The notes under the pieces were generated by a model. That model saw only the letters and a list, made by a program, of their open reading frames with translations, did no database searches and had not been told where the DNA came from. DNA of 64,000 nucleotides, taken from the NCBI RefSeq assembly GCF_054482595.1, contig NZ_CM137008.1; one strand, written 5' to 3'. Position numbers and translations under genes: made by a program. Positions 4,315 to 38,253 of this stretch are shown here, piece by piece (position 1 is the first letter of the stretch; every line of letters begins with the position of its first letter).

Positions 4315-4341
4315 TTAGTGACAAAGTGCATATGTCTTCTT

Positions 4342-4376
<35 letters not shown>

Positions 4377-19978: not shown

Positions 19979-20545
19979 ATGTCATTCACAAATACCCCTG
20001 AACGCTATGGTGTTATATCTGCGGCCTTCCATTGGCTAAGCGCAATTATTGTCTACGGCATGTTTGCTTTAGGTCTGTGGATGGTCACGCTCAGTTATTA
20101 CGATGGCTGGTATCACAAAGCACCCGAACTGCATAAAAGCATCGGTATTTTGTTAATGATGGGGCTGGTTATTCGCGTTCTGTGGCGTGTCATATCTCCA
20201 CCGCCGGGTCCGCTGCCGAGTTATTCGCCCATGACTCGTCTTGCCGCAAAAGCTGGACATCTCGCATTGTACCTATTGCTGTTCGCCATCGGCATCAGCG
20301 GCTATCTGATCTCAACTGCCGATGGTAAACCGATCAGCGTTTTTGGCTGGTTTGACGTCCCCGCGACCCTTGCCGACGCTGGCGCACAGGCAGACTTTGC
20401 CGGTGCCCTGCATTTTTGGCTCGCGTGGAGCGTCGTAGTACTGTCCGTTATGCACGGATTTATGGCCCTGAAGCATCATTTCATCGATAAAGACGACACT
20501 CTGAAGCGCATGCTGGGAAAGTCGTCATCTGACTATGGAGTATAA
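19979..20545 (+). CDS. yceJ: Cytochrome b561 family protein YceJ (188 aa)
   Basis: Translation MSFTNTPERYGVISAAFHWLSAIIVYGMFALGLWM; ORF track extended 25 codons upstream. Confidence 0.93.
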   Translation: MSFTNTPERYGVISAAFHWLSAIIVYGMFALGLWMVTLSYYDGWYHKAPELHKSIGILLMMGLVIRVLWRVISPPPGPLPSYSPMTRLAAKAGHLALYLLLFAIGISGYLISTADGKPISVFGWFDVPATLADAGAQADFAGALHFWLAWSVVVLSVMHGFMALKHHFIDKDDTLKRMLGKSSSDYGV

Positions 20546-20548
20546 AAA

Positions 20549-21124
20549 ATGAAAAAAAGCCTGCTTGGTTTAACCTTCGCGTCCCTGATGTTCTCTGCCG
20601 GTTCAGCGGTTGCCGCCGATTACAAAATTGACAAAGAAGGTCAGCACGCCTTTGTTAACTTCCGCATCCAGCATCTTGGCTATAGCTGGTTATATGGCAC
20701 CTTTAAAGATTTCGACGGTACTTTTACCTTTGATGAAAAAAATCCAGCTGCCGATAAAGTGAATGTGACAATTAAGACCACCAGCGTCGATACTAACCAC
20801 GCCGAACGCGATAAACATCTTCGCAGTGCAGATTTCCTCAATACCGCAAAATATCCACAGGCAACATTCACCTCCACCAGCGTGAAGAAAGACGGTGACG
20901 AACTGGATATTACCGGCGATCTGACGCTGAATGGTGTAACCAAACCCGTCACGCTGGAAGCGAAATTAATTGGTCAGGGCGACGACCCGTGGGGTGGTAA
21001 ACGTGCAGGCTTCGAGGCCGAAGGCAAAATTAAGCTCAAGGACTTCAATATCAAGACAGATTTAGGTCCAGCTTCTCAGGAAGTGGATCTGATTATTTCA
21101 GTGGAAGGCGTACAGCAGAAGTAA
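20549..21124 (+). CDS. yceI: Periplasmic polyisoprenoid-binding protein YceI (191 aa)
   Basis: ORF translation [38 protein letters not shown]; signal peptide. Confidence 0.95.
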
Positions 21125-21134
21125 GAGTGAAATG

Positions 21135-21159
21135 TTGCCGGATGGCACGCATCCGGCAA
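21135..21159. terminator. Hairpin between convergent yceI and trhO (likely bidirectional terminator)
   Basis: TTGCCGGATG-gcacg-CATCCGGCAA between the two stop codons. Confidence 0.5.
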
Positions 21160-21165
21160 TGATAT

Positions 21166-22218
21166 TTATTCTGTTGGATCAGGAATGCCCAGTGTTGTAT
21201 TCAGACGTCCACGAGACTTATTAAAGATCTTATTGCCATTTTCACGTCCTGCCCGACGGCGTCTCTGTTCTTCTGGCGGTAACGCGCTTTCTTCGCAGCA
21301 AATTTCACTACAACAACCTTTGTATTTTTCCGCGCATACTGGACACTGAATAAACAGCAGGTGGCAGCCATCATTTTTACAGTTGGTATGGCTGTCGCAC
21401 GGCGCACCGCACTGGTGGCAATGCGCGATAATCTCATCCGATATACGTTCGCCCATCCGCTCGTCAAAAACAAAATTTTTGCCAATAAAACGCACCGGCA
21501 AGCCCTGCTCGCGCGCCTTACGGGCGTATTCAATAATTCCGCCCTCGATATGCCAGACTTTGTTGAATCCGTTATGTTTCATCCAGGCACTGGCCTTTTC
21601 ACAACGAATGCCGCCGGTGCAGTACATGACGATTTTTTTATCTTTATGTGCCTGCATCATCTCGACTGCTTTTGGCAGCTGCTCACGGAAGGTATCTGCC
21701 GGAATTTCGAGCGCGTTTTCAAAGTGCCCCACTTCATACTCATAGTGGTTACGCATGTCGATAAATAGTGCATCGGGATCGTCAAGCATGGCGTTCACTT
21801 CCGCCGCTTGCAGATACTCACCAACATTGCTGGCATCAAAGTGAGGATCGTCAATACCGTCGGCAACGATACGATCGCGGACCTTCATGCGCAGTACCCA
21901 GAAAGATTTCCCATCATCATCCAACGCGATATTCAGGCGTAAACCCTCTAAAGCCGGGTCGAAGGCATAGAGCTGCGCGCGAAATGTTTCAACATTGCTC
22001 GCTGGTACGCTGATTTGCGCGTTAATGCCCTCATGCGCCAGATACACTCGCCCAAAAACATTCAGCGCGGTAAACAGCTGATATAAAGCGTCACGGGTCG
22101 CCTTAGGATCGGCGATGTGGAAATACTTGTAAAACGAAATGGTGGTTCGCGGTTCGCTCTCAGCCAACATTTTGGCTTTTAACGCGTCGTTGGAAATGCG
22201 GTTGTGTAACACTGGCAT
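21166..22218 (-). CDS. trhO: tRNA uridine(34) hydroxylase TrhO (YceA), rhodanese domain (350 aa)
   Basis: Translation from ATG 22218 [33 protein letters not shown]; Cys-rich C-terminus; ORF track extended 18 codons. Confidence 0.93.
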
Positions 22219-22442
22219 GGTGTACGGTTCCTGCGAGATGGGAAAGTAAAAATCCGCGGCATGATATAGCAATTATCGATAATTAACATCCACACATTTT
22301 ACGCTACATTTGCGCATTAAAAATTATTTGTTATTTACAAGCGCGGCAATTTCGCCCAGTCTTCAGCCACAAATTTTGGTTGCGGGCGAAAAAATGCGAC
22401 AATACATACAATTGCCCGAATAGGTTGAAAAACAGGATTGAT

Positions 22443-23363
22443 ATGACGAATCTACCCAAGTTCTCCACCGCACTGCTTCATCCGCGTTATTGGTTAACCT
22501 GGTTGGGTATTGGCGTACTTTGGTTAGTCGTGCAATTGCCCTACCCGGTTATCTACCACCTCGGTTGTGGATTAGGAAAACTGGCGTTACGTTTTATGAA
22601 ACGACGCGCAAAAATTGTGCATCGCAACCTGGAACTGTGCTTCCCGGAAATGAGCGAACAAGAACGCCGTAAAATGGTGGTGAAGAATTTCGAATCCGTT
22701 GGCATGGGCCTGATGGAAACTGGCATGGCGTGGTTCTGGCCGGACCGCCGAATCGCCCGCTGGACGGAAGTGATCGGCATGGAACACATTCGTGACGTGC
22801 AGGCGCAAAAACGCGGCATCCTGTTAGTTGGTATCCATTTTCTGACACTGGAGCTGGGTGCGCGGCAGTTTGGTATGCAGGAACCAGGGATTGGCGTTTA
22901 CCGCCCGAACGATAATCCACTGATTGACTGGCTACAAACCTGGGGCCGTTTGCGCTCAAATAAATCGATGCTCGACCGCAAAGATTTAAAAGGCATGATT
23001 AAAGCCCTGAAAAAAGGCGAAGTGGTCTGGTACGCACCGGATCATGATTACGGCCCGCGCTCAAGCGTTTTCGTCCCGTTGTTTGCCGTTGAGCAGGCTG
23101 CGACCACGACCGGAACCTGGATGCTGGCACGGATGTCCGGCGCATGTCTGGTGCCCTTCGTTCCACGCCGTAAGCCAGATGGCAAAGGGTATCAATTGAT
23201 TATGCTGCCGCCAGAGTGTTCTCCGCCACTGGATGATGCCGAAACTACCGCCGCGTGGATGAACAAAGTGGTCGAAAAATGCATCATGATGGCACCAGAG
23301 CAATATATGTGGTTACACCGTCGCTTTAAAACACGCCCGGAAGGCGTTCCTTCACGCTATTAA
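22443..23363 (+). CDS. lpxL: Lipid A biosynthesis lauroyltransferase LpxL (HtrB), 306 aa
   Basis: Translation from ATG 22443 [30 protein letters not shown]. Confidence 0.95.
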
Positions 23364-23370
23364 ATCTTCC

Positions 23371-23401
23371 ATGCCGGATGCTTCAGAATGGCATCCGGCA
23401 T
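23371..23401. terminator. Hairpin downstream of lpxL
   Basis: ATGCCGGATGC-ttcagaatg-GCATCCGGCAT 8 nt after lpxL stop; same GCCGGATG/CATCCGGC arms as hairpin at 21135. Confidence 0.5.
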
Positions 23402-23534
23402 TACCACAGCAAATCCCCCTGATTTAGCGATAAAAGCTCTCTGGATTGCGCCCCCTGGAAGTCGGGCGCATAATTAGTGTGCTTATCTTTTCTTCTTATG
23501 TTCACCGCGCCTGGCGCACCAACAGCGGATTGCT

Positions 23535-24761
23535 ATGTCACCCTGTGAAAATGACACCCCTATAAACTGGAAACGAAACCTGATCGTCGCCTGGCTAGGC
23601 TGTTTTCTTACCGGTGCCGCCTTCAGTCTGGTAATGCCCTTCTTACCCCTCTACGTTGAGCAGCTTGGCGTTACCGGTCACTCCGCCCTGAATATGTGGT
23701 CCGGTATTGTCTTCAGCATTACATTTTTATTTTCGGCCATCGCTTCACCGTTTTGGGGTGGGCTCGCCGACCGTAAAGGCCGAAAACTCATGCTATTACG
23801 CTCTGCTCTCGGCATGGGCATCGTGATGGTGTTGATGGGACTGGCACAAAATATCTGGCAGTTTTTGATCCTGCGGGCGCTTCTTGGGTTACTTGGCGGA
23901 TTTGTCCCCAACGCTAATGCTCTTATCGCCACACAAGTACCGCGTAATAAAAGCGGCTGGGCACTGGGTACGCTCTCCACAGGCGGCGTTAGCGGCGCGT
24001 TGCTCGGCCCAATGGCTGGCGGTTTGCTCGCCGATAGCTACGGCTTACGTCCGGTATTCTTTATTACCGCCAGTGTGCTCATACTCTGCTTTTTCGTCAC
24101 CCTGTTCTGCATCAGAGAAAAATTCCAGCCGGTCAGCAAAAAAGAGATGCTGCACATGCGGGAAGTGGTGACATCACTTAAAAACCCGAAACTGGTACTC
24201 AGCCTGTTTGTCACTACGTTAATCATCCAAGTGGCGACGGGCTCAATTGCCCCCATTCTGACGCTGTATGTCCGCGAACTGGCGGGTAACGTCAGTAACG
24301 TCGCCTTTATCAGTGGCATGATCGCCTCGGTGCCAGGCGTGGCGGCTCTGCTGAGTGCACCACGACTCGGCAAACTTGGCGATCGAATCGGCCCCGAAAA
24401 GATCCTGATTACGGCGCTGATCTTTTCTGTACTGCTGTTGATCCCAATGTCTTACGTTCAGACGCCATTGCAACTTGGGATTTTACGTTTTTTGCTCGGT
24501 GCCGCCGATGGTGCACTACTCCCCGCCGTACAGACACTGTTGGTTTACAACTCGAGCAACCAAATCGCCGGACGTATCTTCAGCTATAACCAATCGTTTC
24601 GTGATATTGGCAACGTTACCGGACCATTGATGGGAGCAGCGATTTCAGCGAACTACGGTTTCAGAGCGGTATTTCTCGTCACCGCTGGCGTAGTGTTATT
24701 CAACGCAGTCTATTCATGGAACAGTCTACGTCGTCGTCGAATACCCCAGGTATCGAACTGA
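23535..24761 (+). CDS. mdtG: MFS multidrug efflux transporter MdtG (408 aa)
   Basis: ORF translation [36 protein letters not shown]. Confidence 0.95.
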
Positions 24762-24843
24762 TTTTTCGCCTTTCATACTTGCAAAAGCGGAGAATCAGCT
24801 ATCCTTTTCCCTGAAACCTCATCAACTCAAAGGGAGAATCGTG

Positions 24844-25218
24844 ATGACCATGTACGCAACGCTTGAAGAAGCCATTGACGCTGCACGCGAAGAATTTCTT
24901 GCAGACAACCCCGGCATCGACGCCGAAGATGCGAATGTGCAACAGTTCAATGCCCAAAAATACGTTTTGCAGGACGGCGACATCATGTGGCAAGTTGAGT
25001 TTTTTGCCGACGAAGGTGAAGAAGGTGAATGTTTACCTATGCTTAGCGGTGAAGCCGCGCAAAGTGTTTTTAATGGCGACTATGATGAGATAGAGATCCG
25101 CCAGGAGTGGCAGGAAGAGAATACATTACATGAATGGGACGAGGGGGAATTTCAGCTTGAGCCACCGCTGGATACCGAGGAAGGACGCGCAGCAGCTGAT
25201 GAGTGGGATGAACGTTAA
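24844..25218 (+). CDS. msyB: Acidic protein MsyB (124 aa)
   Basis: Translation MTMYATLEEAIDAAREEFLADNPGIDAED; highly acidic C-terminus. Confidence 0.93.
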   Translation: MTMYATLEEAIDAAREEFLADNPGIDAEDANVQQFNAQKYVLQDGDIMWQVEFFADEGEEGECLPMLSGEAAQSVFNGDYDEIEIRQEWQEENTLHEWDEGEFQLEPPLDTEEGRAAADEWDER

Positions 25219-25446
25219 TTACTCATACGGGCCATGATGAATGTCGATCGGCAGCAGTAAAGTATCAAAAACCAGGGAGAATGGCAGATCAAGGATTGTG
25301 ACATAACGCCAGGCGGAGTCACGCACATCCCATTGCACACCGGGATAATATTGGTTGCCATGCCCCTGCCCCGGTATAGTGCGGCTAATGATGCTGCCAC
25401 AGCCACTCAGCAAGGTCACCATGATGCTCACCACAATTAAACGCAT
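25219..25446 (-). CDS. yceK: Lipoprotein YceK (75 aa)
   Basis: ORF translation MRLIVVSIMVTLLSGCGSIISRTIPGQG with lipobox. Confidence 0.9.
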   Translation of the reverse strand: MRLIVVSIMVTLLSGCGSIISRTIPGQGHGNQYYPGVQWDVRDSAWRYVTILDLPFSLVFDTLLLPIDIHHGPYE

Positions 25447-25469
25447 TTGATACCTCTTCCGTAAAAAAA

Positions 25470-25494
25470 TACCGGCATAACGCCGGTATTTTTA
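25470..25494. terminator. Bidirectional rho-independent terminator (downstream of opgGH)
   Basis: A7-TACCGGC-ataac-GCCGGTA-T5: symmetric A/T tracts flanking a GC stem. Confidence 0.7.
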
Positions 25495-25500
25495 TTGGCT

Positions 25501-25599
25501 CGTTGTTTTTGCCAGATGTGGCGTGAACGCCTTATCCGACCTACAAAATCTTGCAAAATCAACACATTGCAGGAGCGATGTAGGCCTGATAAGCATAGC
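25501..25599. repeat. Pair of REP elements (BIME-like)
   Basis: gccagatgtggcgtgaacgccttatccgacctac and gatgtaggcctgataagcatagcgcatcaggca in inverted arrangement. Confidence 0.65.
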
Positions 25600-25618
25600 G
25601 CATCAGGCAACTACGTTT

Positions 25619-29801
<4,183 letters not shown>

Positions 29802-38174: not shown

Positions 38175-38223
38175 CAGATAAAAAAGCCGGAATTATCATC
38201 CGGCATTTTACTGCTTAAGCGAA

Positions 38224-38253
38224 AGCGTGAGTGCCCCTCACGCTTTATTTTTG
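38224..38253 (+). terminator. Rho-independent terminator downstream of csgG
   Basis: AGCGTGAG-tgccc-CTCACGCT followed by TTATTTTTG; overlaps 3' end of convergent ycdZ. Confidence 0.6.

Follow-up and report, generated by a model that had tools for sequence, protein, structure and literature searches.

Two short hairpins with the same arms, here called HP1 and HP2, stand behind the genes yceI and lpxL in the 64,000-nucleotide stretch of Escherichia coli DNA analysed here (NCBI RefSeq assembly GCF_054482595.1, contig NZ_CM137008.1; hereafter the window). They raise the question whether such hairpins belong to the repetitive extragenic palindromic (REP) elements or are ordinary terminators, and what they do at the ends of these genes. 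An earlier note, made from the sequence alone, had suggested that they are miniature palindromes of the REP type that may terminate transcription or stabilise mRNA. We conclude, with a probability of about 80%, that HP1 and HP2 belong to the REP family as short, perfectly paired forms without the GTAG tag, and that they act as RNA hairpins at gene 3' ends. Both are already known, being catalogued as short REP-family members, with HP1 a mapped two-way terminator, so the finding is an ordinary one and the interpretation given in the earlier note is essentially the accepted view.

Sequence, fold and catalogue entries of the hairpins

The two hairpins were confirmed in the sequence at 21135-21159 and 23371-23401, where they share 9-nt arms (TGCCGGATG/CATCCGGCA) and carry unlike loops, as previously described. 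The gapped pattern TGCCGGATGN{3,12}CATCCGGCA matched twice in the window and not once in 100 dinucleotide-preserving shuffles; GCCGGATG by itself occurred 7 times in the window, compared with 2.7 expected. A chance origin of the arm match was ruled out by the shuffle controls. For HP1 the predicted RNA fold had an energy of -25.2 kcal/mol (z -5.1) when the + strand was folded and of -16.1 kcal/mol for the - strand; HP2 gave -21.7 kcal/mol (z -4.5), with z-scores ranging from -3.3 to -5.1 across the hairpins.

As in canonical intrinsic terminators, a G+C-rich hairpin directly follows the stop codon in both cases, but the U-rich tract of such terminators, 7-8 nt in length, is represented only by a broken T-run at HP1 (TGATATTTATT on one strand, CATTTCAC on the other) and is absent at HP2. 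The flanks of HP1 are weakly A-/U-rich, and on the yceI strand an A-rich upstream and a T-rich downstream segment lengthen the stem. Its + strand passed a lenient terminator scan (5 T in 8), and a table of the bioRxiv preprint 10.64898/2026.03.23.713779 lists 3 U of 8 after HP1 on the MG1655 + strand (trhO direction, window - strand). HP2, with the tail TACCACAGCAAA (longer: TACCACAGCAAATCCCCC), outright lacks the U-tract by which intrinsic terminators are recognised; the composition of the 100 nt downstream is C26/G20.

In the supplement of the same preprint, HP1 is listed as EcoCyc REP99 ('Convergent', yceI/yceA) and HP2 as EcoCyc REP98 ('Tandem', lpxL/mdtG, MG1655 1115627-1115653); the HP2 sequence is the same in MG1655 and in the window. 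By this broad, curated and sequence-based definition both hairpins are REPs. As far as the SEnd-seq catalogue of bidirectional terminators by Ju et al. (2019) is reproduced in the preprint, HP1 is its entry #83 (MG1655 1117862-1117893, corresponding to window 21132-21163), given as UAUCAUUGCCGGAUGCGUGCCAUCCGGCAACAU with -16.1 kcal/mol, a stem of 10, a loop of 5 and an effect on yceJ:yceA:yceI, and detected in log and stationary phase. The preprint counts 697 annotated units (~60% convergent, 40% tandem) and places 78 REPs inside 306 bidirectional terminators. It also holds sister copies of our hairpins, namely REP11 (hpt/can, terminator #6), REP44 (htpG) and REP49 (fetB/cnoX, terminator #36), and the sister-copy REPs found within bidirectional terminators are REP11, REP21, REP41 and REP49. 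In the SEnd-seq terminator table, whose rows have 2-3 sequence columns each, GCCGGAUG occurs 65 times, compared with only 12 occurrences of the canonical core GCCGGAUGCGGCG and 8 of GUAGGCCGGAU; the forms that prevail at these terminators are therefore short or variant and mostly untagged. Searches for 'REP98' and 'REP99' in the main texts of papers returned nothing relevant, and the supplements of the RepRanger paper (PMC12306157) contained no REP list.

Relation to full REP elements

The elements chosen for comparison in the earlier note proved to be genuine REPs, one a canonical Y-type unit and the other a bacterial interspersed mosaic element (BIME) of two units (Table 1). The arms TGCCGGATG of HP1 and TGCCGGATGC of HP2 are identical to the start of this Y unit and of other Y units; HP1 matches its GTAG-distal arm over 9 nt and HP2 over 10 nt, the flanking T/A included. 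More generally, the basal stem of the E. coli REP or palindromic units (Y, Z1, Z2; 'GTAG-3' family), TGCCGGATG[C] ... [G]CATCCGGCA, is also that of HP1 and HP2, which share with these units the extragenic placement at gene 3' ends, convergent or tandem, and the high copy number. At 25 and 31 nt, compared with ~29-37 nt for E. coli REPs, HP1 and HP2 differ in having perfect stems, no bulge, no tag and two arms that both resemble the GTAG-distal one.

In the strict sense an E. coli REP is an imperfect palindrome that is preceded by GTAG and carries an AA/GC bulge; any substitution in GTAG abolishes binding and cleavage by the transposase TnpA-REP, and closing the bulge eliminates activity (PMC8266576). 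No GTAG/CTAC tag was found in the flanks of HP1 (...GAAATG / ATGATA...) or HP2 (...CTTCC / TACCAC...), where GGCATTAC bears a loose likeness to GGCCTAC and no more. The AA/GC mid-stem bulge was likewise absent from both stems, which are 100% complementary. HP1 and HP2 thus fail the strict biochemical definition and are REP-derived rather than full REPs. Because tag and bulge are absent, they are predicted not to be substrates of TnpA-REP and are probably immobile. They would have kept the basal stem, lost the tag and the bulge, and represent immobile, domesticated relics.

An Rfam scan of positions 20000-26000 gave no match on HP1 or HP2; its only hits were on the BIME region (25462-25587), with ES036 (25545-25587) above and naRNA4 (25462-25541) below the gathering score. 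The BIME is adjoined by a perfect 12-bp palindrome after yceK, AAAAATACCGGC-ataac-GCCGGTATTTTT (25465-25493), which is shaped like an intrinsic terminator working in both directions.

The untagged hairpin family in E. coli

The family was sampled in 264 kb of E. coli DNA, made up of the window and four 50-kb pieces of MG1655. The recurrence of the arm motif that the earlier note had assumed was borne out in this sample: perfect hairpins with stems of 8 bp or longer numbered 119, of which 7 had CCGGATG arms, and the next commonest 7-mer arm appeared 3 times, owing to tandem ldr copies only. Six GTAG-less GCCGGATG/CATCCGGC hairpins (hereafter minis) were found alongside 7 tagged Y-type and 8 tagged Z-type units, so that the minis, though untagged, roughly equal the canonical Y units in number. 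Apart from HP1 and HP2, the minis lie at hpt/can, after htpG, at ushA/ybaK and at fetB/cnoX; their further relatives are two shorter GCCGGA/TCCGGC hairpins (lpd/yacH and window 38186) and a CCGGATG-armed variant (dacC/deoR). Seven of these nine hairpins stand between convergent genes, and the minis and shorter ones are all intergenic, in line with the split of ~60% convergent and 40% tandem given in the preprint. The flanking stop codons are nearly always 3-10 nt from the stem (exception: cnoX, 30 nt). The GTAG-distal arm of the Y unit (TGCCGGATGCG...) is matched by both arms of each mini, and the match reaches 10 nt in HP2 and in the copy at fetB.

The shorter relative at 38186 is neighboured by the hairpin AAAGCGTGAG-tgccc-CTCACGCTTT (38222-38246), which corresponds to terminator #81 of Ju et al. 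as far as that catalogue is reproduced (MG1655 1100774-1100806, ycdZ/csgG side). Another untagged perfect hairpin, AATGCCTGA-...-TCAGGCATT, follows mdfA (MG1655 ~884909-884939; locus L085, 24909-24939) and has arms that match the Z-type REP stem GCCTGAT; going by these arms, minis may not be confined to the Y units but have counterparts among the Z units.

Gene context

The window is oriented opposite to the MG1655 chromosome, of which it covers ~1.075-1.139 Mb; positions were converted as window = 1139025 - MG1655, which was verified on HP1 and HP2. The local gene map was taken from the annotation of XH990 and MG1655 (Table 1); yceJ (+) precedes yceI. HP1 fills the 41-nt gap that separates yceI from trhO. 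Since lpxL and mdtG form a co-directional, tandem pair, the location at convergent gene ends that the earlier note had assigned to both hairpins is true of HP1 only.

Table 1. Coordinates of the hairpins, reference elements, Rho-related signals and neighbouring coding sequences (CDSs) in the window.
Feature	Position	Strand	Description
HP1	21135..21159		perfect palindrome TTGCCGGATG-gcacg-CATCCGGCAA, 10-bp stem, loop 5
HP2	23371..23401	+	perfect palindrome ATGCCGGATGC-ttcagaatg-GCATCCGGCAT, 11-bp stem, loop 9
Shorter relative	38186..38204		AAAAAA-GCCGGA-attatca-TCCGGC-ATTTT; A6 upstream, T4 downstream
Reference canonical Y-type REP	4341..4375	+	TGCCGGATGCGGCGTAAACGCCTTATCCGGCCTAC, bulged (interrupted) stem, CTAC tail
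Reference BIME, two units	25501..25610		degenerate Y unit and inverted Z unit with GTAG
Rho termination region, bicyclomycin-sensitive, antisense to yceI	peak 21040 (MG1655 1117985, + strand)	-	Adams et al. 2021, supplementary file 2; Rho score 4.98, p = 2.4e-9
In-vitro Rho-binding (rut) peak M_R10_934	23411..23508 (MG1655 1115517-1115614, minus strand)	+	sense to lpxL, beginning 10 nt after the HP2 stem; 13 bp downstream of HP2 according to the preprint supplement
yceI CDS	20549..21124	+	stop 21122-21124, ending 10 nt ahead of HP1
trhO (formerly yceA) CDS	21166..22218	-	stop 21166-21168, 6 nt from HP1; convergent with yceI
lpxL CDS	22443..23363	+	stop 23361-23363, ending 7 nt ahead of HP2
mdtG CDS	23535..24761	+	same direction as lpxL; start 133 nt beyond HP2

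Proposed action of HP1 and HP2

The convergent yceI and trhO transcripts end at HP1, so HP1 is a bidirectional terminator: their overlapping 3' ends map there in the published SEnd-seq data. It is a member of the class described by Ju et al. (2019), formed by a single hairpin with weak A/U flanks in its short convergent gap. HP1 is transcribed from both strands, with the same stem forming either way. In the collision model of Wang et al., the nascent hairpin pauses RNA polymerases arriving from both directions; read-through is prevented when they collide head-on, and the complex is released by a polymerase that follows behind. Termination driven by collision requires the hairpin. At HP1, hairpin-induced pausing together with polymerase collision may accordingly end both transcripts. 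The bicyclomycin-sensitive Rho region lies ~95 nt beyond HP1 on the trhO strand, and some trhO transcription therefore passes the hairpin; Rho would remove this read-through. Bidirectional terminators are described as Rho-independent, and HP1 differs from them by having a Rho-dependent region just past it in the trhO direction. Other Rho termination regions in the window were located at ~24977, antisense to msyB, and at ~37975, antisense to csgG (MG1655 1114048 and 1101050, + strand; Adams et al. 2021).

HP2, placed between co-directional genes, falls outside the bidirectional terminator class. Rho-terminated mRNAs are trimmed by polynucleotide phosphorylase (PNPase) and RNase II until they end at a stable, U-less stem-loop, and the rut site lies just beyond it (Dar and Sorek 2018); HP2 is alike in being a stable U-less stem-loop with an adjacent Rho-binding site; its assignment to these protective stem-loops, or to the classical REP mRNA stabilisers, is one by resemblance. 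Transcription of lpxL would be stopped by Rho at the rut site just past HP2, the RNA would then be trimmed back to the hairpin by 3'-5' exonucleases, and HP2 could thereby shield the lpxL mRNA and partly insulate mdtG.

Between HP2 and mdtG, a terminator-like scan call (GGGCGCATAATTAGTGTGCTT + ATCTTTTCTT) was obtained at window 23464-23484 (surroundings ~23455-23490). Nearly every Enterobacteriaceae locus with mdtG has the core GGCGCATAATTAGC(A/T)GGCTTA ~50-70 nt upstream of this gene, and the site looks more like a conserved promoter or regulator site of mdtG than a terminator.

Conservation of the two positions

In the set of 5,426 complete E. coli genomes, 5,424 contained the 106-nt region of HP1 and 5,425 the 111-nt region of HP2, with identity of 95% or more in almost all cases; the 3.5-kb stretch around both hairpins, which is 100% identical to E. 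coli XH990, was found in 5,425. A rare HP2 allele (locus L003, 2761-2881, corresponding to about window 23335-23445) has ~80% identity to the common intergenic allele. Its hairpin, GCCGGATAAGATGC-gta-GCATCGCATCCGGC, has the shape of a REP with an AA/GC bulge and no GTAG. The allele is 100% identical in exactly 10 of the 5,426 genomes, all from pig, pork or cattle, which suggests one lineage or an imported segment.

Among 80 TrhO loci of Enterobacterales, yceI was still the convergent neighbour in 55, with gaps of mostly 31-63 nt that for the most part held one obvious hairpin. Arm classes were assigned with regular expressions, and gap lengths were measured alongside. GCCGGAT[G/A] arms were present in 8 of the 55 loci (Escherichia, Citrobacter, Salmonella), with interiors that differ and still pair, GCCCGG arms in 11 (Enterobacter, Lelliottia, Leclercia and relatives) and unrelated stems in 36, some with clear T-runs. 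Citrobacter orthologues show a bulged, longer stem or a two-unit REP at the HP1 position; in Citrobacter sp. MGH106 (locus L062, 5053-5130), a 77-nt trhO/yceI gap holds two opposed REP-like units (GCCGCATGGGAC..GTCTTATCCGGC, then GCAGGCCGGATAAGACGCGCG) in a BIME-like arrangement. After lpxL a hairpin was again common, and GCCGGAT arms were found in only 3 of 75 loci. Most Enterobacterales loci examined thus had a hairpin at both positions. On the whole, the 3'-end hairpin positions are old, the REP-armed occupants are lineage-specific and the stem sequence turns over from lineage to lineage. A GTAG-tagged REP, sought in the 9-kb Enterobacter-group loci for comparison with the GCCCGG arms, was not present there.

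A near-invariant palindrome, A(6-8)-GCCGGGGCGACCCGGC-A(4-8), was noticed ~3.3 kb downstream of trhO in loci of the Enterobacter, Leclercia, Klebsiella and Raoultella groups (L013, L015, L016, L018, L019, L021, L025, L029, L031, L034, L037-L039, L041 and L043; at ~1.9 kb in L034, L039, L041 and L043). It has the look of a terminator that is conserved at a different gene boundary and works in both directions.

Alternative explanations

The hairpins could be ordinary terminators that evolved independently and came to resemble REP arms by convergence on a G+C-rich stem. Such an origin would agree with the many unrelated stems among the hairpins that occupy both positions across most Enterobacterales (36 of 55 trhO/yceI loci have neither GCCGGAT nor GCCCGG arms), with the absence of GTAG and bulge from HP1 and HP2 and with the failure of the Rfam REP-derived models to detect them. 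It does not explain why the identity spans 9-10 nt and includes the flanking T/A of the REP distal arm, nor why this one arm makes up 7 of the 119 perfect hairpins of the sample when each unrelated arm recurs twice at most. Intermediates exist, moreover, in the Citrobacter stems and the rare E. coli HP2 allele with its AA/GC bulge, and curators list both hairpins as REPs; we regard convergence as improbable. The opposite extreme, active mobile REPs moved by a REP-associated tyrosine transposase, could claim the shared basal stem and the annotation as REPs. The stems are perfect and untagged, however, and tag and bulge were required in the published assays (PMC8266576). The hairpins moreover keep the same position in ~5,424 of 5,426 E. 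coli genomes, and Citrobacter and Salmonella have retained the arms of HP1 at the orthologous site. Mobility was rejected because of this fixation and the missing tag and bulge, and is extremely improbable.

A role at the level of DNA, with the hairpins serving as sites or cruciforms for gyrase, IHF or HU in organising the chromosome, has in its favour the historical REP proposals only, as listed in the abstract of the preprint. The preprint itself reports no chromosome compaction and no REP-REP contacts, and the position hard against stop codons, together with the SEnd-seq ends, favours a role in RNA; we consider a DNA-level role very improbable. An effect on translation would be an additional role and not an alternative. 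In the ribosome-stalling model of Liang, Rudd and Deutscher (2015), as far as it is summarised in PMC12306157, a stable hairpin that starts within 15 nt of the stop codon stands in the way of the terminating ribosome, so that less protein is made, and 260 of 496 REPs lie within this distance. The spacing to the stop codon is 10 nt (yceI) and 6 nt (trhO) for HP1 and 7 nt (lpxL) for HP2, and the sister copies begin 3-9 nt after stops. A gap of 41 nt between convergent genes would, on the other hand, force tight spacing in any case. We consider a translational role rather unlikely.

Several points weigh against our reading of HP1 and HP2 as REP-family hairpins acting at gene 3' ends. The RefSeq records of MG1655, W3110 and XH990 show no repeat feature at either site, and the names REP98 and REP99 rest on the supplementary tables of one preprint. 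Descent from full REPs, as opposed to shared selection for a good stem, is something that we only infer from the sequences. Of the 3'-end mapping that the earlier note had proposed as a check, the SEnd-seq data, in log and stationary phase, bear out the terminator at HP1, whereas a search by gene name and coordinate prefix in the curated Term-seq data of Adams et al. (2021) gave no 3' end at HP1 or HP2 and no entries for lpxL, trhO or mdtG. The Rho signal past HP1 conflicts with the Rho-independent description of bidirectional terminators. At HP2, the rut peak stems from an in-vitro screen and carries no flag for overlap with a bicyclomycin-sensitive transcript, and the sources searched yielded no direct in-vivo 3' end, bicyclomycin or half-life data for HP2 or lpxL.

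Implications for the REP family

As a discovery the two hairpins carry little weight, both being in a curated REP list and HP1 in a published terminator catalogue. No RefSeq/PGAP feature marks the sites, so readers who work from the sequence only will keep rediscovering them. The genes beside HP2, lpxL (lipid A acylation) and mdtG (drug efflux), are of practical interest.

A further, tentative proposal, which we hold to be possible but less probable than its negation, is that the GTAG-less minis form a distinct, immobile sub-class of REP derivatives, preferentially kept as two-way terminators in very short convergent gaps, with stems overwritten by the resident REP. Such a mini could arise when a single transition turns the A/C mismatch into a pair, so that the arms become GCCGGATG/CATCCGGC or GCCGGATA/TATCCGGC, and when the interior is replaced. 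The terminator position would be ancient and its stem would periodically be overwritten by the REP of the lineage, GCCGGAT in Escherichia, Citrobacter and Salmonella and possibly GCCCGG in the Enterobacter-like genera. The relation of tagged to untagged palindromic repeats was left open in PMC3733652, and the sub-class reading, if true, would bear on this question. Minis are about as numerous as Y units in the sample, and treating all annotated REPs as mobilisable by the transposase therefore mixes two kinds of object.

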